Shown here in pieces: positions 1-62,900 of a stretch of 64,000 bases of DNA (the stretch's first letter is position 1; each line of letters begins with the position of its first letter). The position numbers were made by a program, and so were the translations under genes. A model generated the notes under the pieces. The model made no database searches. It worked only from the letters and a program-made list of their open reading frames with translations, and was not told where the DNA came from. Origin of the DNA: Rhizaria sp. SCN 62-66 (taxonomy: Eukaryota); assembly GCA_001724265.1 (NCBI GenBank), contig MEDY01000181.1, positions 1 to 64,000 on the forward strand. Reading direction: 5' to 3'.

Positions 1-2274
1 CTCGGAGGCCACGACCTTGCGACCGAACGCGGCCCGCACGCCCAGCGTGGCAGTCATCTGCGGCGCTGACGGGGCAGCGGCGGTGGTGTGCGCCGTGAGC
101 AACTGTGCCTGAGCCTGCGGCTGCGACGCGGTCGCGCTGAGTGCGCGCAGCGGGGCCAGCACCGCGGGCTCCAGCGCGCTCTCAACTGCGCGCGCGAGGG
201 CGCGCATGGTCGTGTAGACGGGCGCCTGCGCGGCCTCGGGCAGCGCGTGCAGCGGTAGCCGGAAGCCGTCGAGCGCGCGCAGCAGCAGGGCGATCTGCTG
301 CGTCACTTCCTCTGCGTACGTCTCGGCCGCGGCCGCGCCCGCGAGCTGCGCCGTCGCGTCCTCGTACGCCGCGCGCGCGCGCTGCGCCGCGTGGCTCAAC
401 CCGAAGGCGCGCGCCACCAGCGACTCGGCCGCCATCGTCGCCGCCGCCGCAGACGCGTCCGCATCCGCGCGCTGGGCCGCTGCGGAGGCGCTGGCGGCGG
501 CCGTGACGACCGAGGCCGCGTCTGCGGCGGCAACGGCCTCGCTCGTCGCGGTCGCCGCAGCCGCAGTGGCCGCCGCAGCCACGACGGCGGCTTCGCGCGC
601 CGCCGCGGTCATCGCCGCGGTCGCGGCGGGCGCGCGCGCAAACAGCGCCCGGTACGCGCGCAGAGCCGTCAGCGGCGTCGCAGACAGCGCAACTAAAGCG
701 GATAAACGGGCCGTTGACGGAGCTGCAAACGCTGCCGCTGCCGATAACGCCGCGGCCGATGCCGCTGATCGTGGCGCTTCGTTTGCGCCATTGTTGTCAT
801 TTCCATCAGAGTCAGTCATGCGTTGACAGCCAGAAAAGTCTGCGTTACCGCTGCGGTTGCTGCTGCTGTCGCCACTACTGTTGACTACCATGCTGTGGAA
901 GGCGTCCTCCGCGGCGAGCGCGGCAGCCGCGGCGCCGTGTCCCTGCGGCGGGCGCGCGTGGGCCCAGTCGACGCGCGGCGCGCCCACGCGCCACTGCGCG
1001 GTGACTGTGGCCACGGCGGTCGCGATGCGGTCCACGGCGCGCGCCGCCTCGGCCGGGTCGCGGAGCCCGAGGCGGGCGCGCGCATCCTGGAAGATGTCCC
1101 ACAGCCACTGCACGGCAGGGTCCGTGAAGACCTCCGGGGGCAGCCGCAGCGAGGCGCCGCCGTCCCAGTCCGCGGCGCCGTCCAGCGTGGGCGCCGTCAC
1201 GGCTGCTGCTTCTGTCGCCGCCGCAGTCAGAGAAGCTGGCGCAGTTGGCAAAATCGTTGCGACTGGGGAGACAGCAGCTACGTATACAGCGGAAGCAAGA
1301 GCATCAGCATGAGTCGATGTGTTGGCAGGGGGCGTGGTCGGAGCGGAGGCAAAGGAGTCAGAGGCAGCGGATGTGTCAAAGGCAGCGACAACATGCGCAG
1401 GTACAGCGGCTACGGACGGGGCAGCGGAGGCGGCAGCGCTTTGGTATGGGGGCGCGTCCGCGTCTGCAGCCGCCGGCGAGGCAGGACGGCTGTTCTCAAG
1501 AGGCCCGTAAGGTAGCTCTGTGGGCTGTGGCAGATGTGGCAGCTGTGAGTGCTCGTCTTTGCGCTGGCTTTCGCGCGGAGGCTTTTGGGCAGGCAACTGC
1601 TGCCGGTTCGAGGGCTGGTCCGGGAAGGGGAGCGAGTTCAACGAGAGCAGCAGGGACGCCAAGGCGGACAAAGGTGCATGCGCGGACGTCTCGGGGGCGA
1701 CCATCACTGTGTTACTTGGCGATGGCTACGACAACAACAACGACGACGACGATGATGGCGGCGGCGGCCGCCGCTAGTGCTGCGGGGAGTAAGGCAGAGA
1801 CTGGACCAACGAGGGGTCGCCGGAGGCCACGGGGCTGGCCGCGGGAAACATGCGCGCGGGCGGGCCGTTCAAGGCAGGCGTGGCGCCGACCGGGGAGGGT
1901 TGTTTCGTAGAGCGTAACGCGGCAGTGGACAGCTAAGCTGAAGTGCGCAACACACCTATGCGAGATTAGATGAGGTCTATAATATGTGCGAGAAGAATAT
2001 AGTAGAAATGAGTCAAATCGATTGCGTATGGCAGTACATTTGGTGTCGCAAGTCCTTCTTGTGTGCTGTAGCGCGACAATGAATGCGTGTGCTGACGCGA
2101 CGGCAATCTGGCCTTCAGTGTGAAATCAGCAGGCACTGGGAAACATGATTAACAAAGGTTTAGCAAGGCTTTAAATTGTCATCGTTAATTATATACCATG
2201 TAAGTGCAGATATCTTGCTGATAGCCTTATTGACGATTCATATAACGTATGTGACCTAAAATTCTAAGCGCCAT
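1..2274 (-). CDS. Hypothetical Ala/Ser/Pro-rich protein, 3' end runs off the window; two in-frame TAG codons near the N-terminus
   Basis: The minus frame is open from 1932 to the window start apart from TAG at 1776-1774 (SPQH*RRPP) and 1728-1726 (SLLS*PSPS). Phase-consistent tentative exons are 2274-2256, 2135-2038 and 1932-<1 (intron 2037-1933 is GTACTG...TTAG). The start is uncertain; an ATG near 1704, downstream of both TAGs, is an alternative. Confidence 0.55.
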
Positions 2275-2601
2275 CGGGCGTTAAGCGGACACCTTCGCCG
2301 ACAGAGGCTGAGTAGAGTAGTTAAGTTTTTCGATCATTAGCGCGTGAGAGTATTAGATTCAGGGTAATTCGTATGCGTAATCAGCTTGAGGATATTTGTT
2401 AATTACTTTAGCGTTTCTTCTTCGGTTCATTCTGAATGTTGTTTAGGTCTATTTCTCTATTTTGTGATGCACACGCGTGAAGGAGATTCATCGGAATGAA
2501 CCGTTCTCATATTGGCTCTTTTCTGTTGTTTTCTGTTTGTAATCAGAGTCGGCACACCTTTTGTTATAGAATACGCACACAACGTACTTGTTGACGTTAT
2601 C

Positions 2602-5136
2602 ATGAGTACGGTCAGCGAGCTTCTGTCGGGGGAAATCCGCCAGAAATTGACAACGACGAGTTCGTTCTCCCACCTCTTCGGCGTCTCCGACTTCTCAGAC
2701 GTCATTGTTGTTGCAGGCGAGGGCATTGATGGGTGCACTCCTCTCCGCATGCCGGCGCACATGTCCGTGTTGACCTCCATGTCCGGGCTTTTCCGCCGCG
2801 CGCTCGACGGCGGCTCCACGACCTCGACTGGCGAGGGCACCGAGCTGCTGCCCCCGGCGGCCGAGTCTGTCATCGCGCGGCTCTACGCCACTGTGCAGGC
2901 GCACGCGCAGACGCACCTCCACGACGACGAGCACGGCTACAGTGCTGTCTCCGCTCCCGCCGCCGCCGCCGCCGCTAAGGCTGCTTCTGCTGGCGCCAAG
3001 GCCGTCGCCACAGGCGCCTCGGGCGCCGACGCCGCTGCCGCTGCCGCTGCCGCCGCCGCCGCCGTCGCTGCCGCAACTGCCGCCGCGGCGACTGCGCGCG
3101 CGAACGCAGACATGCTGACCAAGTCCGCGCGGCTGGAGCTGCTGTTCGAGACGGGCGTGCCGGTGGATGCCTCGCAGGCGGGGCTCTGGGACCTGGACCT
3201 GCTGCTCGACGCCGGTCACGCGCGCGCCGCTGCGGAAGCTGCCGCGGCCGCCGAGAGCGCGGCTGCCGAGCTCCTCGACCGCGGCGCCTTTATCTCCGCT
3301 GCCGTTGCCGCCGCCAATGCCAAGGCCGCCGCTGACGCCGCGCAAAGCCAGGGCCAGACCCAGGGCAGTTTGGCGACGCCGTCCATCCACGCGTACGAGA
3401 CGTCACCGGGACTGTCCGAGGCGGACCTGGAGGCCGCGCGTGCCGCCGTCGCCGCCGCAGGCTCGCGCGCGTACAAGCGTGCCGCGGGCGCCGCTGTGCT
3501 GGCCGCCGTCGCGGCGCTCTCGCCCGCGGCCGTGCTCGCGGTCACCGCGGAGCCCCGGCGCGCCCACGGTCACCCCGCCGCGCCGTGGGCCAAGACGCAC
3601 GCGACGATGCGGCTGCCGCAGCTGCCACCGGCCGTGTTGCCGCTGCTGCTGGCGTGCTTTTACTGCAGCCCGCTGTCGACGTACGGGCCCGACGGCGCGG
3701 CGGCCGCCGCCTCGGGCCGCGCGGCTGCCGCGCTCGAGGAGGCCACACTGACAGCCGCGCTGCTGCTGCCGCTGCTGCGCACGCTCGACGCGCCGCTCAT
3801 CACCGTCGCCGCGCGCGGCCCGCTGCTCTCGGCGCTGTCGCTGCAGACGCTGCCGCTGTACCTCGCGGCGGCCCCGTTCCTGCCCGCGCTGACGGCGCCC
3901 GTGCTGGCATTCGCGCGCGCGCACGCCGAGGCGCTGCTGGGCTCGGCCGCCGTGGAGCGTCTCCCGCCGCGCCTGCTGCGCGCGCTGCTCGAGGATGACC
4001 ATCTCGCGGCTCCCGAGCTCGCCTGCCTCAAGGCGCTGCTGCGCTGGGCCGGCGCGCAGCAGGTCCGCGCCACCATCGCGGCTACTGAGCAGTCGCCGCA
4101 GCAGAACAGCGCGGTGGTCTCTGTGGCGGGGCGGCTGCGCGTGGACGTGTCGCCCGCGGGGCTGGCGCCGCACTTGGCCGCGCTGCTGCCGCTGGTGCGC
4201 TTTGCCGCGCTGGCGCCCGCGGACGTGGCGCAGACGCGGCTGGGCGGTGTCCTCAGCCCCGCCGCGCTCGCTCTCCTCTTCCAGCACCTCGCCTGCGGAG
4301 CCAGTCTTACCAGCGCCAACGCCAGCACCGGCAGCAACACCAGTAGCGTCATCAGCAGCAGCAACAGCAGCAGTGGTGCGAACGGCAGCAGCAGCAGCAG
4401 CGCTGGGAACAGAGCCGGGCGGGGCGGCGCACGGTCTGCACCCGAGCCCTCGCTGGCGGACCGCATGACCGCGGCGGACCACCCGGCCGTGGCGCGCGCC
4501 GTGGCGGCCGCGCTGGCCGCGGACCCGCTGTTCGCGCAGCCCGCCGTGGCCCGCGCGGAGCCCGTCTCTGCACTCGCGCGCGCGCGCCACTTCGCCGCCG
4601 CGGACCCGGGGCTCGCGGTCGCCGCGGCCGCGGGGCCCGCGCTGCCGGTGTCCGCCGCCGCTACCACCGTCGAGACCGGGGCTGCGCACGACCACTCGTC
4701 GTCGTTGTTGTCGTCATTGTCATCCTCGTCGCTGTCGCCGCTGTCGTCGCAGCGCCAAATGCAGTCTTCTGCCTCTGTCGTGGCCGCGCAGTGCGTGGTG
4801 ACACCGGTGCCGATGCCGGCGTCGGCGCTGGCGTCGCTCCTCTACGGCCATCCGCGGCTGCCGCGCGCGCCGCCGGCGCTGAGCGCGGCGCCCGCTGCGG
4901 CCGCGCTGCGCGGGCTCGACGGCTGGGTGCTCGAGACGCGCGCGCGCCTCGTCGCCGCGCTGCCGCCCGCCGCCGCTGCCCAGAGCGCGTTTGCGCCCGC
5001 GCGCGACGCGTTTGCAGACGCCTGGACCGCATTCTCCTCGCAGCAGCAGGAGCAACAACAGGAACACGCACAAGCCCAACCACAGCTGCAGCAGCAGTAC
5101 CAGCAGCATTAGCAGCAGCAGCAGCAAGCGCAGCAT

Positions 5137-5173
<37 letters not shown>

Positions 5174-8100
5174 CCAGCAGCGGCTGGCGCTCTGCCGCAG
5201 GCGCGCGCGGGCGGCTGAGCGCGCCGGGTTGGGGCTGGGACCGCGCGCGCACATCGCACAACGTGCGGCTGGGCGCGGGCGGGCGTGAGGCGTTGGTGTG
5301 GCCCGTGATCCGCGAGAACCAGGCGCAGCACCTGCTGCTGCACCACACGCTGCCGCGGCTCGCGCTCGACTGGTACCCCTACCTCGCGCTGTGCGACTCG
5401 CCCGTGGCGGCCGAAGTCCGCGCCGCCGTGGGGCCCGTCGCGCCGCGCGACGCCGCCGAGATCTCGGCCTACGGCATCCAGTCCACGGCGCCCGCGCGGG
5501 CGGCAACCGCGCGCGCGTCGCCGGGCGAGTGGCTGCAGTGGGAGCAGAGCATTGTGCCCTACGAGCAGCGCATGCTGTGCGGGGTCGAGAAGGCGCGCCC
5601 GCCTCTGGCCGTCACGGCGCACCTCTTCGCCATGGCCTCGCTCGCGCATCTCGTCGGCACGCTGCCCACGGGGACTGCGGCCGAGACCGGGCTGCGGTGC
5701 TGGCGCGTGACGCGGCGCGCGCGCGAGGCGCTGCAGCCGCTGTCACAGTGGTGCGCGCACGTGGGCGTGGCCAACGCGTCCTGGGCGCCGCTGCGCCTCG
5801 GCGCGTGGCGCTTCGCGGGCATGATGAAAGCGCACCTGGACGCGCCCCACAGCGTGCGCGCGCGCATCAACGCCGCCGTGCTCAACCTCGCCGTCGAGGA
5901 CATCCCCGCGCTGCGGGCCGCTATTGCGTAGCGCCGCGCCGCCGACGCCGAGGCCGACGCCGCGATGACTGCGGCGGGGCTCCACGCCTTCCAGCGGCCG
6001 CAGCGCCCGCGGCTCGTGTGGGGCGCGATCGCGACGCAGGCGGCCGAGCTGGGCCACGGGTCCACGCACGTTCTCGCCGAGGCCAAGATGGACTACCTCG
6101 TCGAGGCGCTGGAGCGCGCGTGCGACCACTTGGAGCAGAAGGGCGCATACTCGCGGATTTTCACGCTGTCGGCGCGCTCGCTCACGCGCGCGGAGTAGTC
6201 CGAGATGCTGGGCGTGGCCGAGACCGAGGCCGTGCCGCCGATCGAGGCGCGCACGGCCCTCTTCGGGTTCGCCGGTAACCTCCTCGCCAACGCCGGCGAA
6301 GCCGACGCCGCCGCGGGCGTAGAGGCGATCGCCGCCGCCGCGGGCGCCGCGCACGCCGCGCTGGTCGCGCAGGCCGATCAGGACGCGCGCAACAACGACA
6401 ACGGGGGCGACTCGCAGGACGAGGACGCGGGGGCGGACGCCGAGGCCGAGGCCGAGGCCGAGGCGGCGGCGGGCGCGGCGGGCGTGAACCTGGAGCCAGC
6501 GGGCGCGGCCAGCGCGGCGGTGCGCGCCACGGCGCGGCTGCTGCATCTGACGGCGCAGCAGGCCGTGTCCGTGCACGCCGCGCTCAGCCGCGCCGCCATG
6601 GCCGCCGCTAACAGCAATAACAATAACAATAATAACAATAACAACAACAACAATGCTAACGCGAGGAATCCCGGCCGCCCGCCGCTGACGCCAGCGCAGC
6701 GCGAGGAGCGCCGGGCGCGGCGCCGCGCCGCGCGCCAGAGCAGGATGCGCCCGGACCGGCAGAGCAATCGGCAGTCGCGACTCGAACAGCAGAGCCAGGA
6801 GTACAGCACATCCAGCTCCAGCGGCAGCGAAGTTGACGACGACGACGACAGCGAAGACGAAGCGGAGGCCGCCATTTGCGCCACAACGGCGGTGATGGCC
6901 GCGCGCGCGGCGGACGACAGGAGGCCCGTGGCCACCGCGCTGGCCGCCACCACCGAGGGCTCACTGGCCCGCGCGCGCGCGCTGGCCGCGCTGCAGTGCG
7001 TGCTGCTGCAGTGCCTTGAGCTCGACGTGCACGCCGCGCGCTTCAACGCGGCCCTGGTCGACGAGCTGTTCCGCTGCGTGGCCGCGCTGGAGCGCTGCGG
7101 CGTGCCCGCGGCGCCGCTGTTCGCGCCGCCCGAGGCGCTTCGCGCGCCGCCCGCGGCGGCCGTGACGCTGCTGCACGACCCGCGGCGCGGCGAGCTGCAC
7201 GCCGCCGTGGCCGCGCCCGTGCTGCCGCTATTCGCGCTGCCGCTGATGCGCGTGCTGCAGACCGCGTACCCGCGCCTCGCGTCCTACTCGGCCTCGGCGG
7301 GCGCCGCGCTCGCGCTTATGGACTCGCTCTTTGCATTCGAGGCGCTGCCCGCCGACGCGCTGCCGCGCGCGCAGCACGACGAGGCGCGCCGCCGCGGGCT
7401 GCTGCTCCGCGCACGCGCGCTGCGCACCGCGGCGGGTAAGGCCAACCGCGCGGCCTTCGGCACCTCGCTTGCGCCCTACGCAGGCTTGGGGCTCGCGCTC
7501 GACCCCGCGTTCAGCGCGGTCGCGGCCGCCGAGGCCGGGCTGACGCTACCGCTGGCGCCCGAGGTCGCGGCCGCGCTGCCCGCCGCAGTGCTGCAAGCCG
7601 TCGTGGCGCTGCCCTGCACCGGCACCAGCACCGCCGGCACCGGCGACTCCGGCGGCGCGCCCGCGACGCTGGCCGCGCGCGCGGGGCAGATCGCCGACGC
7701 GCTGCGGTTTGTTTGGGTGCGCGTGCGGCGCGGTGCGGCGCTGGCAACGCTGCGGCTGCCCGAGCGCGCGCTGCCGCTCAAGGCGCTGGACCGCGTGCTG
7801 GGCGCGGCCGCGGACCGCGCCAAGGCCGCCGTGTGGTTCCGCGCACTCGAGGACGCGTACGTCGACGCGATCGTGCACGGTTACGCGTGGCGCGCGCACC
7901 GCGTGTGGGCGCTTGTGCCGCCCGGCGTGCGGCGCGCGGTCGAGCTGGTGACGGCGGCCTACGAGCGCCATGGCGCGCCGCGCGACCGCTTCGTTCCGTT
8001 CGTCGCACACACCGTCAACGAGCGCGACGACGATATCGATGTCGAGACCAGCTACAGCATCGCAGACGTGCCTGTCACCGCGTTCGACGGGTGGGACTGC

Positions 8101-8196
8101 CTCGGGCTCGGCGTCGGCTTTGCATCGGCGGACGCGGCGGCCAATGTGGCTAATTACGCGGCAGCTGATGCGTTTGAGAGCAAGTCGCAGCGCTGA
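2602..8196 (+). CDS. BTB/POZ + BACK domain protein, about 1864 aa when three internal TAG codons are read as sense
   Basis: BTB-like motifs (FSDVIVVAG...PAHMSVLTSMSGLFRRAL; LPQLPPAVLPLLLACFYC) and BACK-like motifs (LPPRLLRALLEDDHLAAPELACLKALLRWA...LLPLVRFAAL). ORFs 2512-5112, 5263-5931, 5965-6198 and 6205-8196 share one frame and are separated only by TAG at 5110, 5929 and 6196. Ends in TGA followed by an AT-rich 3' region. Confidence 0.75.
5041..5172 (+). repeat. Coding (CAG)n poly-glutamine tract containing one TAG codon
   Basis: Reads CAG CAG CAT TAG CAG CAG CAG CAG CAA GCG CAG CAT CAC CAG CAG... at 5101-5172. Confidence 0.9.
6616..6654 (+). repeat. Coding (AAC/AAT)n poly-asparagine tract
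   Basis: Run of AAT/AAC codons inside the BTB/BACK gene. Confidence 0.85.
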
Positions 8197-8491
8197 TGGG
8201 GATGTTTTTTTTTGTTTTTGTGACGGAGTAGTACTTAGTTTTTAGTGTTCACGATCAGCGTTATTTTTTATTTTGTGCATACACCAGTGATCATTTTTAA
8301 ACAAAACATTTTTTGCAATTATACCAATATCTAGCGGAGATACCTGTGACTTTCTGAGTTCTAGTCTTATTGTGGTGACAGCTTGTCTTGAGAGACGTCG
8401 GCGGCTTAAATTTGCCCAACGGACCGACCGGTGCTGAGCGAGAGAGCGAGTTGAGCAGAAGTTTGCAACCGTTTGTTGGCCTCTCCCCGAC

Positions 8492-10357: not shown

Positions 10358-12451
10358 ATGGAGCTTGTGCTCAACGCCTTCCGCTTTAAGTCGACAGGTC
10401 CGTTCTTCCCCCAAACTCCGCTCTCTGGTATTGCTTTGCCTTGTCAGCACTTTTTCACGTTGTATCATTTATTGCTATACACACCAACTTGCTGAAATTG
10501 CTCGCACGCACAGACTACCAGCGTACAATCGACTTCTATCAGGGTGTCCTGAAGATGCCGATTGTACGCCAGCTCGACTCCTCCGCCAAGGTCCGCCTCA
10601 CCTTCCAGTTTCCCCATGACACCGTCGGGCTGCGCTTCTAGTTTGAACGCACTGCCGCAGCTGCCGCAGCTACGAGCGCAGGCTCGGACGCGGGGTTTGA
10701 GACGCTGCCGTCGCTGCCGACCGCGCCGCGCGACTCAGTGTCGCTTCTGCTCTATGTGGCCGCGATGGACCCCGTCGTGGCCCGCGCGCGCGCGATGGGC
10801 TTCGTCGTCTACGTCCCACCAGCGAAGCTCAACCATCTTGTTACATCGTACGTTTTTGCACGCGCTCACGTTGCCTCGCTCTATATACTTCGATGACTTC
10901 TTGCCACACTGATTGAACCGCTCTACCTTGTCAGTCACACTGTTTTAGCTCCCGTTCATCTTACGCGCGCATTACCCCCTCTCTCTTGAACTTGTTTCCC
11001 GATATCTTTAGCGCTGTGGTGCTCGACCCGAACGGACTGCGCGTGCGCCTCATGCAGGTCGATAACCAGCCCATTCTCCCGCCCATCACAACCGCGAGCG
11101 CGACCGCAGGCGGCGCTGATGCCGACTCCCCCAACCCCGGTCACGGGCACAGCCATAGCCGCAGCAGCGGCAGCGCGGTCGCTGGCGATGGCGGCGACGG
11201 CGATGGCGGCTCGCGCGCGCGGGGCCCCACGGCGCGGCTGGGCTACGTGTCGGTGCCCGTGGCGAGCGCGCGGCGCTTCGGCCAGGTCGCGGCCTTCTAC
11301 GACGCACTCGCCCTGCCCGCGCACGCGCGCCCCTCGGCCTCGGCCGCGGCGGCGGCGGCCGGGGGCGCGGGCGCGGCGCTGCCCTTCTCCGCGCTGCCGC
11401 TCACGACGGCCGGCGGCGCGGGCTCCGCTGCGGGCGCGACCTCCAGCATGAGTGCCGGTTCGAGTGCCGGCAGCAGCAGCAGCAGCGTTGGCCGCGCGTC
11501 GCGGCACCTGCGCGAAGTCGATGCGGAGCACGTTGCGGACGCGCTGACCGCCTTCTTGTGGCTTGGCAACGGGCCCCGCGCGCGCCGCCCCGCGCTCTGC
11601 CTCGTCCACAAGGCCACACGATCGGGCACCGGCGCCGCCACCACAGCGCTCTCGTCCGCGGCGGCGGCGTCGACGCCCGCAGCAGCAGCTTTGGGCGACG
11701 GCGAGTCCGGCGCGGGCGCGGGCGCGGGCGGCGAAGACAGCGAGTCTAGCGCGGTGACGGTGGCCGCCGTGTCGCACCCAGTTTTCCTGGGCGTGTCGTG
11801 CCTCGTGCACTCTATCACGGCCGCCGCCGCGCAGCTGCGTACAGTCGAGGGGCTTGCCGGTGCGCGGCTCGAGCCCGCCGCCGCCGCGCACGGGCTGCCG
11901 CGCTGTGTCTCCTTTATTGACCCCGTACGTGACGCCGCTTGCGCTGCTTGTCTTGCTACACTACGATCATTGCCTGACTTGTTTGTTGGTGTTGATTGTG
12001 ATATGTTATCCCGTTTATTGAATGTGTGTTTTATGTAATGCAACTGGCTGTGATATTATTTGTGTATTTCCTGTGTTGTTTTTAAATATCATGTTTGCCT
12101 TTTTATGTCATACTTGTTTTCTTACCCTTATTGTACTTCCTTTAATTACCCACTAAGGCTTCCGTTGCGGTCGAAGTCACCGATGGCGTGCCGTACACGC
12201 CAGCTGCATCAGCGTCCTCTGCCACCGCGGTTGCAGTCGGCGCCGGCTCTTCCTCCGACACAGCGGCTCTGCTTGCCTCTGTTTACGGCCAGAGCATTCA
12301 CGGTCAGAGTCACGGCCACGGTCACGGGACTCCGCGGGGCAGCGCGCCGTCACAGGCGCAGCCACAGCAGCAGCCACAGCAGGCACAGTCGCTTTCATCG
12401 CTGGTGCGATTCGGTCCGACGCCGGAGCCATGGCAGGGCCGCCACGGGTGA
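10358..12451 (+). CDS. Glyoxalase/bleomycin-resistance (VOC) superfamily protein with two VOC-like domains; exons 10358-10397, 10514-10847, 11012-11924, 12158-12451; one internal TAG
   Basis: Spliced translation gives TDYQRTIDFYQGVLKMP...VGLRF*FER...SLLLYVAAMDPVVARARAMGF...AVVLDPNGLRVRL, then a second unit RLGYVSVPV...VAAFY...SFIDP|ASVAVEV. TAG at 10639-10641; stop TGA. Confidence 0.75.
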
Positions 12452-15418: not shown

Positions 15419-16218
15419 GAACGTGTGCTGTGTTGAGCTGACTGGGAGAGCTGTTTTGAATGCGGCGCTGCGCTGAGAGAGCGAGGGGCGCGCAAGGGCG
15501 GAACAAAAGTGAGGGACTAAGGCGCGGGGGGGAAAAGCAAAGACGCGAACGGTCTGTGTGAAGTCAGAGAGATGAGGCAGAAGCGATGCCGGCAGCGAAT
15601 GAGCAAGAGTGGTCAAGTGGGAAAAGGGGAGGGGGAAGCGCGCGGGCGCCGAGGATAGGGCGTTTCAAGGAGCAGCGTGTGAGAATCCAGCATAGGAGAT
15701 ATTCGGAGCAAAGATTACGAACGGCTTGTGCGGCCTGGACGGGAAAAAAAAGTGCTAAGGAGGCCTTTCATAACGTCTCGTCGAGCGACGCGTCAACGGC
15801 CATCCATTGACGTTAAAGGCGTCTAGCGCACGTCATCAAGCCGAAGAGCATGTACTATAAAAGGAAAAAGTATAACTCAAGCGTAGCTCAGTCTGAATGA
15901 CCGCTTGTGTACGATTAACGGTCGTTTCCCCCTTTTGCTGTGAGTTTAACTGACTTTTCTGAGTCATCAGACTGGGTGAACGATAGTGATCTTGTGGCTG
16001 TGTTGAAAACACGTTATTAACCGTGCATATCGTCACTTCGGCGCGCGTATGCGATGCTATTTGATATAGATTCTAATCCAAATATATTGTTTTCTTATTC
16101 CACACCAGGCTTCACTTGATATTGTGTCGAACAGGTCTTTTTTGCGCCACTCGGCAGTCTTGCTCCTTCTCGACCCAAACACCGTACCGTCCGGCCCCCG
16201 CGCGGGGAGCTCTGTCCG

Positions 16219-19200
16219 ATGCTCCGTGCCGGCGCGCTGACCGCAGCCGCGCGCATTAGGACCCTTGCCGCCCCTCTGTTTCTGCCACGCCTTGCAACCG
16301 TGCTCTCATGCCCGCCCCGGCGCACGCTTTCCGTCTCTGCCGCCACGCACGGTGTCTCAACCGCGACTGCGGCTGCGGACTCGGGCGCGGTGGCCGCGGC
16401 CCGCGCGCGGCTGCCGCTGCTTTTCAACTCGTGGGACGACCCTTTTGTGGTGGTGTACAAGCCCGCTGGGCTGGCCATGCAGCTGCGCGGCGACCTGCCC
16501 GCCGGCCAGCCCTCGGCCGCAGTCAACGCCGACGCTAACGCTTGTGACGCCAACGCTAACGCTTGTGACGCCGATGCTCACGCTTGCGACGCCGACGTCG
16601 ACGCTGACGACGCTGACGCTGAGGTGGGCGTGGAAGCCGCGGGCCGCGGCGTCCAACCGTCAGTGATGTCTCTCGCGCGGTTACTCGCGGGATCCGCGCG
16701 GCCTGTGTACCTTGTGCACCGGCTGGACAAACACACCGCGGGGGCGCTCGTGCTCGCGCTGCACCGCGCGGCGGCCTCGGAGCTGCAGGGCTCGGTGCAG
16801 CGGTCCGCCACGCTGAATACAGCACAGGATGAGTTAAATATAGCACAGGATGAGCTCTGCGCCGCAGAGGAAGCCGCTGCAGAGCAAGCTGTTAGTGCAC
16901 AAGAGGATGCCATTTCAGATGCAAAGACAGACGCTGCAGCGGCGGAAATGGGGCCGTCAGCGGTGCTGCGGGCGCAAAAGAGCGCGGCGCGGCGCGCGCT
17001 GCGCTCTGTGCTCGACCGCGGCGCGCCCTGGGTCAAACGGTACGCGGCTCGCTTCGAACAGTACAAAGCGATATATATTATACCGGTGAGCCCAATATAA
17101 TGTATTTTAGCTGTTGTGCTTTCCGGAGGTCTTCTAACATTGTAACTTTTGTTTTAACTCGATTGCGCTCAATTTCTATAGGTACCGCATCGTGGTCGAC
17201 TTGCCGCCCTGTGTGCAAGCAGGGTTACAGCCACAGAACCACCACAGCAGTCGCAACCGCTGGCCACACCCGTTGTCTGCGCTTGTTTCGCCCCACCTGG
17301 GCGGTACCGGCCTCTTCGCCGTCCAGTCACTGCGCGACAGCGATAGGGCCGCCGTCGCCCCCGGTCAGAGCCAGAGCGGCGCCGCTGTGGAGCGCGTGCT
17401 GCTGCGGTAGGGCGCGCTGGCGACGTGGACGCTGCGGCGGCCGCTGTTTCCGCCCGCGCTGCTCGCGCACATCCCCGTCGTGCCCACTGGAGCCAGCGCT
17501 AGCGCGGGAACGGGATCAGAGACCGGCGCTGCGGACCCGCCTGCAGACACGGTGCTGACGGCGGCGCAGGGCTGGCGTGTCACACTGCCAACCAGCGGTG
17601 CTATCAACCCAGTGACATCGACAGCGCCAGTGACAACAGTTGCGGCGCCTGCCTCGATGGCCGAGTCTTCTGCCGCCGCGCTGTTCTCCGGCGACACCGT
17701 GCCTCCAGGTGCGTGGGCAGAAAAATCGCTCGCGCTAGGACCCGCCGTGCGCGCGCGCGCTCAAGCCGCGGCGCGTCGCCGGCTGCCCTGGGCATGGGCT
17801 AACGCCCGCCTTGGCTCCGATGACGTCAACGCTGTAGATACTGCGCAGACAGTTGATACACCAGAGCAAAATGGGAGCAGCTCACTCGTGCTCGATGTGC
17901 CGGGCGCTGCAACGCTCTGTGCGCCTGTGCCGGTCGCCGCGCAACCGGGCGCTTCGTTGGCCGTTGCGAACGACTTTGCCGTGCTTGCCGGTGCGCTGCC
18001 GCTGTCCGCTGCAGTGACCCCGGTTGACAGCGTCGCACTGGCAGAACGTGTTTCAAGCGCGCTGCGGGCGCGCTAGCGGCTTGCAGTGGGCGACGAAGCG
18101 TCTGCGGTCACGCCCCCACCACAGCAAGGACCAGGCGTCGCAGGTGCGCAAGAGAGCGGAACCGGCGTGGTTGCGCTGCGCTCGCCATGGGGCGCACACC
18201 GGCTGTTGCTGCAGCCCGACGCTGAGGCTGAGGCCGCGGACGGCCGCCGGTGGCGCGCGGGCCGCTTTCTGCGCTATGCCGCGCTGCCCTGCGGCTGCGC
18301 GCTGCCCCACCGCGCCGCCGCTGCGGGCGTACATGCGCGCGACTTCCGCCCCGACGACTCGCCGCGCTCTCTATCTTTCCACAAGGAGAGCAAGATCCTC
18401 GACACGCTTGGTGTCGAGGACGCGAGTGCGAGCGCGAGCGCGAGTGCGCAGTACAGCGCCGAGGCGCTGGCGCCGCGGTTTGCGCTGCACCCGTTCGTGC
18501 CGGAGCACATCCTGTTCGAGTCCGCGCCGGCGGGCAGCGCGACGCACGAGCTCAAGCCGCTGGCACCGGACCGCGCTGGCGGCGCGGCGGGGCGGCCGCC
18601 GGCGGTGTTCACGGCCGTGCGCGCCCGCGCCCGGCGCGCGCTGACGACGTTCCGCCTCGAAGGGCTCGCTCGCGGCGGTACGGCGGCGGTGTACACGGCG
18701 CAACTGGGCACGGGCCGTACCCACCAGCTGCGCGTGCACTTCGCAGACGCGGGGCTGCCAATCCGCGGCGACCCATACTACAACCGCCCGCTCGTCGCCG
18801 CATGGGCTGAAGCGGTGCTATCCGCCGCCGCCGCCGCTGATGATGATGATAAGGGGGCTGAGGGCGCCGACAAAGCTGTGTCGCCGTCACCGCAACCGCA
18901 GTTGCTGCTGGAATCGGAACTGCATTTGCAGGCGTACTTCTTGCAGTTTCCGCTCCCGCGCCGTGCGCTCGCCGACGCCTTGGAAAACGAGGCCGACAGC
19001 GCCGACGCCAACGCCAACGCTCACGGTGACGGTTCGATGCAACGCGGAGACCTTGGCCGCAGCGCGGTACCGAACGGCAGCGACCCGCTGGTGCGACTCA
19101 TTCCCGTTGCCAACACCGACAGCAGCAGGCACAGTGCCACAATTGCGGCCCGGTGGACAGAGGCGCCTCTACCGGGCCCGCCCGCGCTCGCGCCGGGCCG

Positions 19201-19939
19201 TCTGGGCGCGGGCTCACGCGGGCGGCGTGTGGCTGAGCACGGCGCGCTGCTGGCCACCCTTGCGCGCGTCGCAAATGCAGCCGCCTTTACCGCCCCTGAT
19301 CACCACGCAGCCTCTCCGCAGCAGACCGCGGCCGTCACAGGGCTGCCGGTGTGGCTGCGCGCGCGTGAGCCCTGGACTGCGGTGGCGCACGAGACTGTCG
19401 GGTCCGACGCCGCTGCGCTGTTGGCGCGCGTGTTGCGCGAAAAACCGCTGGTCGCGCCGGTGCGCACGGTCGGCGACGCCTCCGCGCTGCTGGCGCGGTG
19501 CATCGCCGCGGACAAGCCGGCGATCAAGGCGCTGACGGGCGCGTTCTTCCGCGCGCTGCACCGCCACTCTGCCGCCGCCGCAACCGCCGCCACCGGTGCG
19601 GCAGGCGCAGGCGCGGGCGCGGGCGCGGGCGCAGAGGCGCCGCGTGCGCGCGTGCGGTTGTGGTGGAACGAGCCCGACTCCGGCGGCGACGACCTGGGAC
19701 GCTACGAGACTGACTCTGCGGACGCGAGTGCGAACGCTTCCGGCGAGCCTCCGGAGCAGCACCCGCTGGGATTCACGAAGGTGCGGCGCGTGGATGGCGC
19801 CGGTGCGGCCGCTGTGGGCGCGAAGGTGTGGCGCTTTGAGAGCGACGCGGGCGTGGAGCTCGTGCGCATTGTGCTGCCGCCGCCAGAGCGCTGGGGCGTC
19901 GCCGTCGAGCAAGCCTCGCAAGCGGCGCAAGTGGTGTGA
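16219..19939 (+). CDS. RluA-family RNA pseudouridine synthase, probably organelle-targeted; exons 16219-17039 and 17182-19939; two internal TAG codons
   Basis: Motif I VVYKPAGL, catalytic motif II YLVHRLDKHTAGALVLA, KRYRIVV across the splice junction, motif III LGTGRTHQLRVHFADAGLPIRGDPYY, and LHLQAYFLQFP. Exon 2 is one frame broken only by TAG at 17408 and 18074. The N-terminus is Arg/Ala/Leu-rich like a transit peptide. Stop TGA. Confidence 0.85.
16531..16614 (+). repeat. Coding 21-bp tandem repeat, about 4 degenerate copies (DANACDA/NANACDA/DAHACDA/DVDADDA)
   Basis: gacgctaacgcttgtgacgcc aacgctaacgcttgtgacgcc gatgctcacgcttgcgacgcc gacgtcgacgctgacgacgct. Confidence 0.8.
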
Positions 19940-36072: not shown

Positions 36073-36535
36073 GGGGACAGTCGCACTGTCACTTAATGCA
36101 CTTGACCATGAGTGAACACTGAGTGGGGCCGGGGGATTTCTTTACAATAGTTTTAACATTGACTCCAACTAATATAATACACTAGATTAAAACAGTTTAT
36201 TTTATCTTGCTGTAACATTTTTCATCTTGAAGTGTGAACATTGCGAGTTTATATCCGCGCTACTCTGTCAGACACTGGTCAGATGACAAACAGTGGCCAA
36301 CGACTGCGAAAGTCATCTCGTCTCGGCTTCGCAAATTTGACTTATACTGAATGACTGTGATCGTCAAATCGAAATACAACGACTGAGTGGAAATTAAATG
36401 TGCATTTAACGCTATATAACTTATTTGTTTCTCATATAATTCAGGTGTACATCATATCTCACCGATCTGCGGCGCTCTCGGTCTCCCCAATATTGCCTCT
36501 TCAAACCGCGTACAGGTCGGACGCGCCTCACACCA

Positions 36536-56903: not shown

Positions 56904-59900
56904 ATGAGGCATGTGTTCTCACTGCGCACATGGCCCGCGCTTTTGCTGTTGCTGCTCGCTACACTGGCGACTTTGCTGACTCCTGTAACATCAGTGTTCT
57001 CGATAACTTTGAACGCAGGTGCAGCAGCCCGCGCGGGCACTGCAGTCGACGTGGCGTTCAAGCTGGACACCACCCTTGCAGGCGGCGTATACGAGGGCGA
57101 CCTATTTCTTAAGTCGATGAATGACGATCCTATCTTTGTTCAAGGTACTTTACGCCACTGTCGCAGTGAAACTGTAAACGCCAGCGTTGGCATCGCCGCC
57201 ACAGCATACGCCGCCGCTATTAACGCAAACACCTTTTCGTTCAACACCACTAATGCCATGACAAACCTTGTCGTCCGTTGCCGCATTACGCTATCCTTTC
57301 TTTATGCTAACTCCACAAACGTCGCTGTGCTCGCGGAGCGCGTGAACGGCGTAAGCCAGGGCAATTCCACAACAAATTTATTTCTCGTCGGCTCGCCTGC
57401 GATTGTTTTCCCCGACGGCGCCTTCCTGTGGTACAACGACGCGTGGATTAACCAGGGCACACGCTTCAACATGCGTTTTTCTTTCACGGGCTCGCTGCGC
57501 TCTGCGATCACTGAGCTGGGCGCGATGAGGATTAACTTGCAGATTGAGGCCGGTACAACACACACCTTTGCGGCCATTATGTCATGCACGCTCGACATGG
57601 GTGCGACCAACGGTGGCGTCATTCAGCTTGCGGCGCCCACACTCTCCGGGGCGAACACGATTGCCAACTTCGCCATGCCCGCGCTTCAGGAAGACACGCA
57701 CGACGGCCAGGCAATCACGCTCAACTGCCTCGCGCCGTGGCGCTCCGACACAGAAACTAGCGTGGTTGCGTCCTTCATCATCAACCCTTCGCTCTACTTT
57801 GGCGTTTACCAGTTTACTGCATCTTCGCAGCCAACCATGCTCCCTATGTTCGCAAACACAGACTCATTTTCCGCCTTGTTTGCGATTGCCGAGACGGCCC
57901 CCACGTGGAACTCCGTCGACCAGGTACGTTTCCGCTCTAGTGTCCTATCAAAACGTCTTGAATCCAGACACTTCCAGCGTGTCGACGAGTCAACTGTGTT
58001 TATCCAACCCTTACATACGAGCTTTCAATTGCTCGCGTGCCATGACGTGTGCTTACTAATTCTCATATTCATATTTTCCTCATACTTTCATAATTTTTCT
58101 CTTCTGATTCGTACTACGCCAGGGCTTGCGCGGCAGCTCCGGCACCATCAAGCTGGGCCTTAGTCGGAGCTCCGACGGTGCCTTCTACCGCGGTGGCACT
58201 GGTGCGTACTGCACCGTGGGCATCAAGGGCGTGACCCACGAGCTGTATGCTGATGCCTCGGTCGCCGTCGTGCCGCCGCTCCAGCCCTCGGCGCTGCTTA
58301 AGGACGGCTACTGCACGTTCCCCATCAGCTCGCTTATCGTGCATGGCGGCGCGAGCTTTGCGGCCGACGACGCGCAGCTCGTCTTTGGCCTTTACTTTCC
58401 CACGGCGCCGGCCGCGCTAAAGGCCTCGGGATACGTGTCCTCAGACGGCTGGTTACAGCGCGCGTACTCGATCGACCGTCCGTTCACGACGAAACCGCTC
58501 CCCAGGAGCACCAGTCTCGCCGCAGTGACGGCCTTCACGCCCAAGGGCATGTACGTGCCGCAGCGCAGCTTCCTGTTTGACGGCAACACGACTCTGGCCG
58601 CGTACGACTACTTTGCGTTCCCGCGCGAGCTGCCGTCGTTGCCCGACAAAGCGCGTCCGCACCCGCGGCCGGCGCCGCGCCGCCTGCACGCCGTGGCGGC
58701 GTCGCCCGCTAGTTCGCCGCGGTCCACGACGCTCAAGGCGTCCATGAGCGGCCAGCTCTCGTTCTGGTTCGGCGGCATCCGGCAGCTCACGCCCTCGTCA
58801 TCGCCCTCGCACGTCGCGAACCTACTCAACGACCTGTGGGTATTTGACGCGCTGGCCAACACCACCACGCTGCTTGCAGGCGACCCGTCGAGCGTGAATA
58901 TGGGCGCGCGTGTGTACGCGTCCATGACCTACAATCCCTACAACGTCCCAGCGGCGCGGCACTCGGCGGCGTTGGCCTACGACTCTGTACAGCGCATGCT
59001 CTGGCTCTACGGCGGCGCTAAGCACGAGCTCATCAACTCGGCGGCGAGCGTGTACACGCTTTTCGACGACTTGTGGTCGTTCGACCTCTTACGCGGCCAG
59101 TGGGCCTGGCACTCGGGCAATTACGATGGCGTAACACGGCCAGGGTTTGCACAGGCATTCTCGGCTCGACCTCTTCCACTGGCCGGTGTCGCCATGGCTG
59201 CGCACAACGGTTGGCTACTTCTCTACGGTGGCTTAGGCTGCGCGTCGAAGTCGCAAAACGACACCAAGTACAACGCATTAGTCGAGGCAGAGCATCTTTT
59301 CTCCTACGAGACTGGGACGGGCAATTGGACGCGACTGCAGGGTTCGACAAACACATTCGACAACACGCTGCCGACACGCGGCAATTCAGTTCACCCTGCG
59401 GCGCGTGCGTACGGACAGCTGCTATGGCGCAACGACGCCGCAGCTAGCTAGGGCCAGTTGTATTTATATGGCGGCGTGCTGTCTCCGCCGCCGATCGGCG
59501 CCATGACGACGGGCATGATCACCGCGGCCACCACGCGCGCGTCCGCAACGCTCCCTGAAACGGACTCATCCGTGTTGTCAGGGCTATGGTCGCTTACGGT
59601 GACCTTTGCCAACAGCACCGCAACGTGGTCGCGCCTTGATCAGGCGCCCTTGATCGTCACCGCTGGTTCACGCGGAGAGCCGCGTATTGTGGACGCGTCC
59701 GCCGGACTTCAGCTTAACCCTGGTGGCCGTGTGTTTCACGCCATGAACGTTGCGAGCAATGGCGACCTGTTCCTCTACGGCGGCCGCGGCCACGCAGCCG
59801 GATATTGGGTGGATCCCGAATCCGCGTTGGCACCAACCGTCCCTCTGGGCGCTTTGCCACGACCGTCACCCTTCACGATTCCGCTCAGCGGTTTCTACAC

Positions 59901-62900
59901 CAGTCCCGGAGACTCGGCTGCAGTGACGTACCACGCGTTTATCTACACTTACGCCGAGCTCAGCGCCGCCGGCGTGCCCACGAGCCTCAACCTCGCCACA
60001 CTCGAGTTTATGTTTGCGCTCCACCATTCGGCGGACATTTCACTTGCAGGAACCTTTGACGCCTCGTCGTCTTTTAAGGTTCGGATGCTGGCGGTGACCA
60101 CGACGCTTTCGACCTTCGATAGCTCTGACTCGACCGTTTTCAGCAATCTGGCCGCGCGCGTGTCGCAGCAGCCCGCCGTGACGGTGTACCCCAGCACGTG
60201 GCTCCAAGGAACGTTTATGTCGCTCACCGCGCCCTACGCCCGCGCCAGCTCGGGCGCTACGGGGGAGGCGCCGCTGCTGTCGAGCTCTAACATGCTCATT
60301 GTGATGCGGATTGATCACACCATGGTGGGGACCCCGGCGGCCTCTTCAACGCCCTTGTACGGGCTCGCATTACGAGAGGGCACTCTTCTCCGCTCGATGT
60401 CCATCGTAGCTGATGCCGTCACGACCTTAACCAGCCCCTACAACACGTTTGAGAAGTACACAGCGCGGCCTGTGCTCGGCCTACGCTCACCGCTGCCCTC
60501 GCACCCCTTCACCGCCCCACCAGCGTCGCTGTCGCAGGCTGCCAGCCCGCAGCTCGACGACCTGTGGCGCTTCGCGCGCGAGTCCGGCACCTGGCAGTTG
60601 CTGCGTGGCTACATGACGCCCGTGTCGCGCAACAGCGCAGCATAGCAGCGCGTGACGTCGCAGACAACGGCGTCGCACTGGCCCGGCGCGCGCCTGGGCG
60701 CGACGCTGTTGCTGCCGACCACCGACGTCGGCGGCGCTGTCAGCACTGACCGGACTGTGTTTGTGCACGGCGGCTACGCCGTGCACCCGCTGCCGAGTGA
60801 GGACGCGCGTTTGCTGGCGAGCCCCGCGCTGCAGCTGCACGCGGGATTTTACGCTCGTGCGTCGGCGCACGACGACCTGTGGTCCATCGACGTCGCAGCG
60901 AACTGTATCGACTCGGCCGCGCCCGGCGCCAATGAATGCGTGAGCCGCTCGCCGCTGCGTCCGTCTTTGAGCTCGCTGATGCCCGCCGGCGGCGAGGGCG
61001 TGTCACTCGCATACGATGAGGTCACGCTCGTGGCGCTTTCCGAGTCGCGCGGCAACACGTGTCCCGACGACTCGGCCGCGACGTGCGGCGCGGGCGGCGA
61101 GTGCATGCCCGCGGGCGGCTCGTACTACTGTAACTGCCACGCCTTTGCGTTTGGCTCGCGCTGCAACACCTCGCTTGAGGTTGAGCTGCGCACGCGGTTT
61201 GAGGCCAGTTATGGCACCGTGTTCGGCTCCATTATTGCCCCGAACTCATGGCCCTTCACTTCAGTCGCGCTGCGTCCGGGTACGGCCCAGCTGTGGTCGT
61301 ACGGCGGCATGATGAGCACTTCAGGGGCGGCGACTGGCTACGCCATGGCCTCACACGCAGTCCTCGATCTGGCGCTGCGTACGATGAATGCGATGGGTCG
61401 CCCCACGGAGTTGATCGCATCGCACAATTTTTCGCAGGCCTTGGTCCCCAACGCGCCAGCTATCGACGGGAAGACGTACTACAGCGCGTCGTGGCCTCCG
61501 CCGTCGATCGAGTCGCACTCGTGGTTTACGCCTGACGGGCTCTACATGTTCCTGTACGCTGAGAGCTTCACCGCGCCGCCGGGACTATGGCGGTTTAATG
61601 TGACCAACTTTTCATGGACCACGACAGGCTTCGACCACCTCTCGTTCTCCGGCCGATACCCTGCCGGCACAGATAATTACACTTCCTCCGTCCCGATGCC
61701 GGGTGTTGCGGACGTGATGAACCACCCCGGTGCGCGCCAAGGCTTTGCGCGCGCGTCGTACACGCCGGTGGGTGCGACCGAGACAGACACGCGCTTCTGC
61801 ATCTACTCGGGCCACCAGTTTTACTTCACCAGCCGCGGCGACGACTTCAACACGGATCTCTGGTGTCTCTACACCTCTGGCACCACCGACCCCAAGTGGC
61901 GGCAGATGTCGGGCATGGCTGCCCAGACCGCGGCCGACTATTTCCCCGTGATGGGCGACCCGGGCGAGTTTGGTGCCAGCTTCAATCCCGGCTGCCGTGT
62001 TGGCGCCGCGATGACCTTTTCGCGCGACGGCCGCTTCCTATATCTCTTCGGCGGCTCGATGCATGGCCCGTCGGGAACGACGCAGTTTCCGAAGCCGGCG
62101 CTCATGAACGATCTCTGGGTATTTTCGTTTGCAAATAACCAGTGGGCCTACCTCACCGGTTCCCGAACATGGGCCACCGCTGGCTCAGCGTCAGCGCAGA
62201 ACATCATGCTTGTTCCTGGCGCGGCCTCGCGTCTGCAGCGCCCCGGCGCGCGCGTGCATGCGAGTATGACCACCGACGACCAAGGGCTCGTGTACGTGGC
62301 CTACGGGCTGATGGTGTCGGCCAATTCGGGTCCCGGTGACGGCATGGACAGCGCGATTTTTGCTGTGTTTGGTGAGCAGCTGTTTAACTCAAGCTGGGTC
62401 GCGCCCACCGACGCGGCCTTTGCACCCGCGTCGCATACTGTCGGCTACGAGCACGCTCCGTGGATATGGATGAAGAATCCCAACACTGGTGCCGCCGCGC
62501 CAGAGGGGCTCGTTTGGAGCGCGACCCCGGAGACGGGCCGCATCGGCGCGACGCTGTTTTTCGGCCCCAACGCGATGAACACCGATGCGACGGCCAAGAC
62601 CACCCCCACGGGGACGTTGATGCGCACCGCGGGTGGCTACTACCACTCGGGCAAGACACGCACATATGGCGGCACGACAGGCTTCCCCTACTTTGATTTC
62701 TCCCACGTTGGTTCGGCGCACGCGTTGCCTTCCGTTGTCGCCGTCACTTCGCCCTGCGCGCGCAACCCGTGCTTGAACGGCGGCGTGTGCTCCAACTGCG
62801 CGACGGCTACGTGCGCCGCGGAAGACTCCCGTTTGTTCCCCGGCGTAGGCCCGCTGTCGTACCGCTGCCTCTGCCCCGCCGGCTGGTTCGGCCAGCACTG

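Follow-up and report, generated by a model that had tools for sequence, protein, structure and literature searches.

The stretch of DNA analysed here, 64,000 nucleotides from Rhizaria sp. SCN 62-66 (the window), carries a long gene with three in-frame TAG codons, the first of which lies in a Gln-rich tract, and it raises the question of whether TAG is a sense codon in this organism and which residue it specifies. The preliminary description of this DNA read the first TAG as Gln. We favour the reading, at a probability of about 0.78, that UAG is a rare Glu codon in the nuclear code, with UAA and UGA as the stops. The features of the gene are the following.

2602..8196, + strand: gene, apparently intronless, of 1864 codons, ending at TGA, with three in-frame TAGs
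5041..5172, + strand: impure Gln-rich tract, from the codon count, absent from the orthologue P0250
5110..5112, + strand: in-frame TAG, read as sense, most likely Glu; seen in the sequence, outside the coverage of the sequencing-run contigs
5929..5931, + strand: second in-frame TAG of the gene, the same in the run X6 contig spanning 5780-6021
6196..6198, + strand: third in-frame TAG of the gene, with no difference listed in the X5 and X6 contigs

When TAG was read as sense, the + strand frame at 2500-8196 remained open over 1898 codons, and under translation table 11 it split into pieces of 870, 272, and 665 codons. The proteins P0249 and P0251 are fragments of the kind that standard gene calling produces by cutting at TAG. 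The translation of 5101-5172 reads QQH-TAG-QQQQQAQHHQQQQQQQQQQQ, with the TAG at 5110-5112, and the sequence and the frame confirm the earlier statement that this TAG lies within a frame with coding sequence beyond it. A search of a profile library yielded two orthologues of the gene. The orthologue P0250, from a relative, is a single stop-free chain that aligned with residues 512-1836, across all three TAGs. Because the TAG positions sit in poorly aligned parts, the two orthologues do not indicate the residue. In addition, a weak BTB/BACK match was seen near the N-terminus (BACK, E 4e-4), and a homologue search with 5173-6390 as the query gave no match.

Upstream, at a 3n distance, are two GT donor-like sites. 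Their surroundings have 69-75% GC and can be aligned with the orthologue, whereas the real introns of this genome are AT-rich. The preliminary description had reasoned that a polyadenylation site just after 5112 would speak against its reading; neither AATAAA nor ATTAAA occurs within 5001-8300. The run contigs come from other studies. Compared at 82% likeness, they revealed no differences between strains at the covered TAG sites and left 5005-5187 uncovered. X5 is a poly-A RNA library, with a contig at 6025-6443; such a library can hold DNA, and the contigs cannot prove transcription.

The tract at 5041-5172 comprises 44 codons: 31 for Gln, one TAG, and 12 for other residues, namely two Glu (GAG and GAA), four His, three Ala, and one each of Pro, Leu, and Tyr. 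The sequence is Gln-rich on both sides of the TAG, as had been described, but the poly-Gln run is impure. The further claim that this context decides for Gln did not hold, because Glu, His, Leu, and Tyr are also accepted in the tract, and because neither residue is favoured by the sequence around the other 35 TAG sites. When the neighbour composition was scored with the site at 5110 included, Gln ranked first and an origin of all sites from Glu codons was rejected; for the other 35 sites, over a narrower span, the result was neutral (Gln -4.8 bits, Glu -7.6 bits). The residue before the in-frame TAG is Ser in 8 of 36 cases, whereas for Gln or Glu codons the share is about 8%, and T stands directly before TAG in 31% of cases (coding sites in the window and in contigs C1, C42, and C4).

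Further in-frame TAGs are found elsewhere in the window.

10639..10641, + strand: TAG in a glyoxalase-like domain, a Pfam-scored site
17408..17410, + strand: TAG in a pseudouridine-synthase-like gene, by domain match
18074..18076, + strand: second TAG, in frame, in the same pseudouridine-synthase-like gene
59449..59451, + strand: TAG in a Kelch-repeat gene, by domain match
60643..60645, + strand: second TAG, in frame, in the same Kelch-repeat gene
1726..1776, - strand: two TAGs (1774 and 1726) in the 5' part of a minus-strand frame, coding uncertain

All nine other TAG contexts that had been quoted are present in the window, including the two at 1774 and 1726 on the minus strand, although the coding status of that stretch is doubtful. 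Two adjacent + strand frames at 16120-19939 each gave a weak match to a pseudouridine synthase family and may be one split or intron-containing gene. The + strand frame of 3578 codons at 36440-47176 has no Pfam match and no TAG; by eye, its C-terminus presumably resembles an Smr domain.

The behaviour of the three stop codons was compared with a codon model trained on, and then applied to, 664 kb of sequence, made up of the window and 600 kb from three further contigs. Among the stops preceded by coding-like sequence, coding resumed past 22 of 33 TAGs, 0 of 74 TAAs, and 1 of 62 TGAs. Of the 49 putative gene ends in these 664 kb of the 34.9-Mb genome, 32 are TAA, 17 are TGA, and none is TAG. 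TAG is the rarest codon, with 36 occurrences among 155,973 coding codons (~0.02%), and the sole eRF1 found, the product of an essential gene, has an in-frame TAG in domain 1. At the rate in this sample, the 34.9-Mb assembly would hold far more than a thousand in-frame TAGs. The reassignment of UAG from stop to sense is almost certainly real, and the earlier view that TAG is not a true stop is upheld by the orthologue that spans the TAGs, by the codon-model counts, and by the gene ends. UAA and UGA still act as stops. A code in which UAA is also sense, as in UAR=Glu codes, is contradicted by the same counts, since no TAA is followed by further coding and TAA ends 32 of the 49 genes.

The source genome is GC-rich, contains spliceosomal introns, and encodes about a dozen dynein heavy chains. 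One contig (G000:C1, L054-L073) holds uninterrupted frames of up to 11,211 codons beside intron-rich housekeeping genes. At phase-0 introns (L168 and L100), CAG stands before the intron, and in the cytoplasmic dynein we take the intron-flanking CAG to give Gln where the homologues have Glu; splice signals may therefore shape residues.

The identity of the residue was examined at protein domain columns. The family searches gave 28 TAG-bearing matches that were fetched, of which 12 were in frame and 16, being intron acceptors or intronic, were dropped; two SNF2 rows with mixed stops were left out of the fetched set. No TAG-bearing match was found in the ABC (0/20), WD40 (0/149), AAA (0/22), or DHC_N2 (0/13) families. 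The 12 scored sites are 11 of the 12 in-frame matches and the glyoxalase site of the window; the site on L104, which lies in an insertion, was left out. TAG was read as each of eight residues and scored against Pfam, and the summed scores over the 12 sites were 859.1 bits for Glu, 852.8 for Gln, 849.9 for Lys, 848.1 for Asp, 846.3 for Ser, 843.7 for Tyr, 838.9 for Leu, and 835.3 for Trp. Arg, Ala, Asn, Val, and His scored below Glu at the eight sites where all were read; Cys, Phe, Gly, Ile, Met, Pro, and Thr were left out of the scoring. Leu lies 20 bits under Glu, and the hydrophobic Leu columns expected if UAG encoded Leu were not seen.

The difference between Glu and Gln at the TAG sites was +0.53 bits per site (SE 0.21, n = 12). 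In control swaps in 11 domains, the same difference was +0.64 for true GAG codons (n = 150) and -0.44 for true CAG codons (n = 90), and the TAG sites are thus 4.7 SE away from the behaviour of true Gln codons. Site by site, Glu exceeded Gln at eight, tied at three, and lost by 0.1 bit at one. These values come from just 12 domain sites, mostly in variable columns, with one site giving 2.4 of the 6.3 bits. That site is the kinase hinge, where the nearest solved kinases have Ser (KSR) and Gln (TNNI3K). At the TAG site on L099, NEK1 has Gln. In the SUV3 column, 120 homologues have Asp in 90, Ala in 8, Ser in 5, Glu in 5, and Gln in 3. The conserved Gln columns expected if UAG encoded Gln were not observed at the 12 sites, with the ubiquitin copy described below, NEK1, and TNNI3K as exceptions. 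The preliminary description had named alignment at conserved positions as a comparison that could overturn Gln; once run, it pointed to Glu.

A tRNA gene with a CUA anticodon lies at L036:1489-1561 on contig G000:C84, and it is the only tRNA among the 18 matches to the search pattern. It scored 58 bits against Rfam and has a short variable loop; the cloverleaf was recovered by the Rfam alignment, and free folding missed the full cloverleaf (z -1.5). The gene is flanked by ordinary nuclear genes and followed by a poly-T terminator. Its first five acceptor pairs are those of the genome's tRNA-Glu(CUC) and tRNA-Glu(UUC), and it lacks the G1-C72/U73 acceptor of the genome's tRNA-Gln. It is identical to the two tRNA-Glu at 47 and 46 of 73 positions and to tRNA-Gln at 38-40 of 73; whole-tRNA identity alone is weak evidence, because tRNA-Met and tRNA-Ile reach 45-46 of 73, barely under tRNA-Glu (64%). 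In a phage collection, all the annotated matches with a tRNA label that cover at least 77% of the gene are tRNA-Glu, and both plasmid matches checked are tRNA-Glu(UUC). Judged by these sequence features, the CUA tRNA has a tRNA-Glu body.

A looser pattern that allows an intron yielded no second CUA tRNA in the assembly, which may be incomplete (one match, against three in the control), and two patterns able to match a Gln-derived CUA tRNA found no such tRNA in the same assembly. The long-arm tRNA-Leu(CUA) that a UAG=Leu code would use was not seen, the variable loop of the one CUA tRNA being short. The CUA tRNA is also 74-80% identical over 70 bases to actinobacterial tRNA-Glu, above its identity to the organism's own tRNA-Glu (64%), and the D arm is bacterial in appearance. 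On this comparison, the gene may be of bacterial or organellar origin.

The eRF1 gene, on L031 (G000:C63), has its in-frame TAG at the position of human Glu107. In this column, 120 homologues have Glu in 109, Asp in 10, Val in 1, and Gln in none. The closest relative (84%) has Val, a sense codon, at the TAG column, and the column can therefore change in this lineage. The protein carries Thr32Ser (Thr in 120/120 homologues), Gly57Ser (Gly in 120/120), and Thr58Lys (Thr in 119/120), and also Leu124Met against a near-invariant column, whereas Leu69 is unchanged; the GTS motif becomes GSS, and TASNIKS becomes KASNIKS. The stop-reading motifs of eRF1 are thus altered, as in UAG-reassigned codes. 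According to an excerpt of PMC5304391, Thr32 makes contact with the G of UAG, and Iotanema has Gly in its place; the standard-code relatives of Iotanema keep Thr32, according to an excerpt of PMC9161772. In the relative behind P0004, Lys58 is present as well, but Thr32 and Gly57 are retained and position 107 is a sense codon; the change may therefore be confined to this branch. The eRF1 TAG is also present in a metagenome contig (L161), which, being 100% identical over 1626 bases and maybe from the same data, was not counted as independent.

The eRF1 gene is strongly codon-biased, and the codon after its TAG is the single AAA among its 32 Lys codons. A gene of 440 codons would contain one or more TAGs by chance with a probability of 0.10, and eRF1 feedback is therefore a possibility and not a result. 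It is unlikely that UAG has been only partly freed from termination and that the UAG in domain 1 acts as a feedback switch, by which more eRF1 would cause more termination on its own message. If true, this would amount to a eukaryotic analogue of the RF2 frameshift of bacteria, and to a code change observed while the codon is very rare. Such feedback would recall the autoregulation of plant eRF1-1, in which the eRF1 level feeds back through stop readthrough and NMD (excerpt of PMC5397192), whereas the candidate signal here is a UAG inside the coding sequence of domain 1.

The best-surviving alternative, which we consider unlikely, is that UAG encodes Gln, as in Iotanema, Hartmannula, and Trochilia, with either a Gln-type tRNA that is absent from the assembly or a glutaminyl-tRNA synthetase that charges the CUA tRNA. 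This reading draws on the sites where TAG faces Gln. In a ubiquitin-like domain on contig C681, TAG stands where the organism's ubiquitin has CAG, and this copy is under purifying selection, with 27 silent and 7 replacement changes relative to that ubiquitin; a tandem duplicate within the same gene also has TAG opposite Gln, and NEK1 and TNNI3K add two further cases. Gln is second in the column test, and it is the commonest outcome of UAG reassignment according to an excerpt of PMC11687900.

TAGs in poly-Gln outnumber those in acidic tracts among the matches listed or fetched. A Gln-tract pattern gave 284 matches, 100 of them listed; all eight that were hand-picked are in the Gln frame, one weakly, and the remaining 92 listed were judged by eye alone. 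An acidic-tract pattern gave 10 matches, of which three were fetched and two of these were in frame. Glu-centred acidic contexts are about half as common as Gln-centred ones. The tract counts were dropped as a test of the residue, because CAG mutation explains the excess under either code: TAG arises from CAG by a transition and from GAG by a transversion, so that former Gln sites would be expected in both cases.

Against Gln stand the distance of the column test from true Gln codons, with none of the 12 sites favouring Gln by more than 0.1 bit, the lack of Gln in the eRF1 column, and the CUA tRNA, which has no tRNA-Gln acceptor and no Gln-derived counterpart by either pattern. The constrained sites and the tRNA would be what discriminates between the residues, and both favour Glu. 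The assignment to Gln made in the preliminary description is accordingly replaced by Glu, given the conserved columns and the tRNA-Glu body of the sole CUA tRNA found; Gln retains some probability because several TAGs face Gln in close copies.

The gene on contig C681 (L172/L176, G000:C681:3-3600) is open over at least 1198 codons. It contains internal duplications in tandem, a ubiquitin domain that has been captured, and two in-frame TAGs; its C-terminal part presumably resembles a peptidase S74 chaperone. Its GC content is lower than that of its neighbours, and another gene close by, also low in GC, contains a single TAG. The C681 gene is possibly a mobile or virus-derived insertion. The ubiquitin of the organism (L170, L171, L173, and L189) is unusually divergent, and Met-Ser precedes the usual first residues, a start that in our view is reminiscent of the insertion in rhizarian polyubiquitin. 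Rhizaria and Cercozoa are marked by one or two additional residues between the repeats of polyubiquitin; the genome search for a polyubiquitin repeat junction gave no match. A very divergent, AT-rich 18S rRNA gene of about 4.4 kb (L052, G000:C706:4459-8903), whose assignment to the host genome is putative, contains several large insertions, which by eye resemble group I introns.

A second alternative, quite unlikely, is that UAG is ambiguous or leaky, being read mostly as Glu with some Gln, or as Glu in competition with residual termination by eRF1, with the eRF1 TAG as a feedback switch. It would fit the rarity of TAG, the rarest codon in the sample (36/155,973), its occupation of both former Glu and former Gln sites, the single tRNA gene, the mild Thr32Ser change, and the presence of TAG in eRF1 despite strong codon bias, next to the only AAA. 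tRNA-Glu-derived amber suppressors are partly mischarged with Gln in E. coli. Conversely, a TAG in a gene of this length would arise by chance at 0.10, the closest relative has a sense codon at the eRF1 position, TAG ends none of the 49 genes, and fully reassigned codons are likewise rare in highly expressed genes (excerpt of PMC12153298). A standard code, with the TAGs as errors of assembly, nonsense mutations in pseudogenes, very small introns, or sites of RNA editing, is very improbable: 16 of the 28 TAG-bearing domain matches fetched were indeed intron acceptors or intronic, and the TAG at 5110 lies outside run-contig coverage, but genes are interrupted by TAG alone and not by TAA or TGA, the sole eRF1 found, which is essential, has a TAG, a cognate tRNA is present while TAG ends no gene of 49, and contigs of other studies, one of them from the poly-A RNA library that may hold DNA, show no change at the TAGs of 5929 and 6196.

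If UAG encodes Glu, the change may have arisen when a copy of tRNA-Glu(CUC) altered one anticodon base to give CUA. This tRNA would be charged by glutamyl-tRNA synthetase and would decode UAG and not UAA, in line with the decoding of UAG but not UAA by CUA tRNAs in an excerpt of PMC11687900. The Thr32 change would weaken the hold of eRF1 on a third-position G, with loss of UAG recognition. New TAGs would arise from GAG, silently, and from CAG, by a Gln-to-Glu change tolerated in tracts such as that at 5041-5172. TAG may stay at 0.02% of codons because a single tRNA gene makes the codon costly.

To our knowledge, UAA and UAG nearly always share one meaning. Nuclear reassignment of UAG with UAA as stop is reported to Leu or Gln, and to Ser in a green alga according to a 2024 discussion (excerpt of PMC11687900), and in the literature searched UAG=Glu occurs only alongside a reassigned UAA (excerpts of PMC10553269, PMC12153298, and PMC12440015). 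Iotanema spirale (UAG=Gln) and the rhizarian exLh (UAG=Leu) combine a sense UAG with a UAA stop, as here; the CUA tRNA was predicted in them, whereas the gene was found here, residue 32 of eRF1 is Gly in Iotanema and Ser here, and Leu69 is Ala in exLh and unchanged here, where the residue is most likely Glu (excerpts of PMC5304391). In phyllopharyngean ciliates (UAG=Leu or Gln, UAA stop; excerpt of PMC11687900), UAG alone is likewise reassigned, with one or two CUA tRNA genes, but UAG is widespread as sense; here the residue is another, UAG makes up 0.02% of codons, the genome is GC-rich, and introns are long.

Oligohymenophorea sp. PL0344 (UAG=Glu, UAA=Lys; excerpt of PMC10553269) has tRNA-Glu-like CUA tRNAs, as here, but UAA is sense, UGA is the sole stop, and there are 10 CUA genes, whereas here UAA is the main stop and the search gave one CUA gene. 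A tRNA-Glu(CUA) also serves UAG in Blastocrithidia (UAR=Glu, UGA=Trp; excerpt of PMC12153298), which uses UAG as Glu and avoids reassigned codons in highly expressed genes, and peritrich ciliates have UAR=Glu (as cited in an excerpt of PMC11687900). In these two groups, as excerpted, UAA and UAG are reassigned jointly, and UAG makes up 1.4-1.7% of codons, roughly 60-fold its share here. The literature searched, which was mostly open-access, gave no organism that combines UAG=Glu with a UAA stop, and a prior report is possible.

Overall, the codon, a Glu-type CUA tRNA, and an Iotanema-like change at Thr32 occur together in one genome, which makes the discrimination between UAG and UAA by eRF1 testable. 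Poly-Gln context can mislead on the residue. Even at 0.02% of codons, and in a GC-rich genome whose genes are split at TAG by standard gene calling, a reassigned codon can be maintained.
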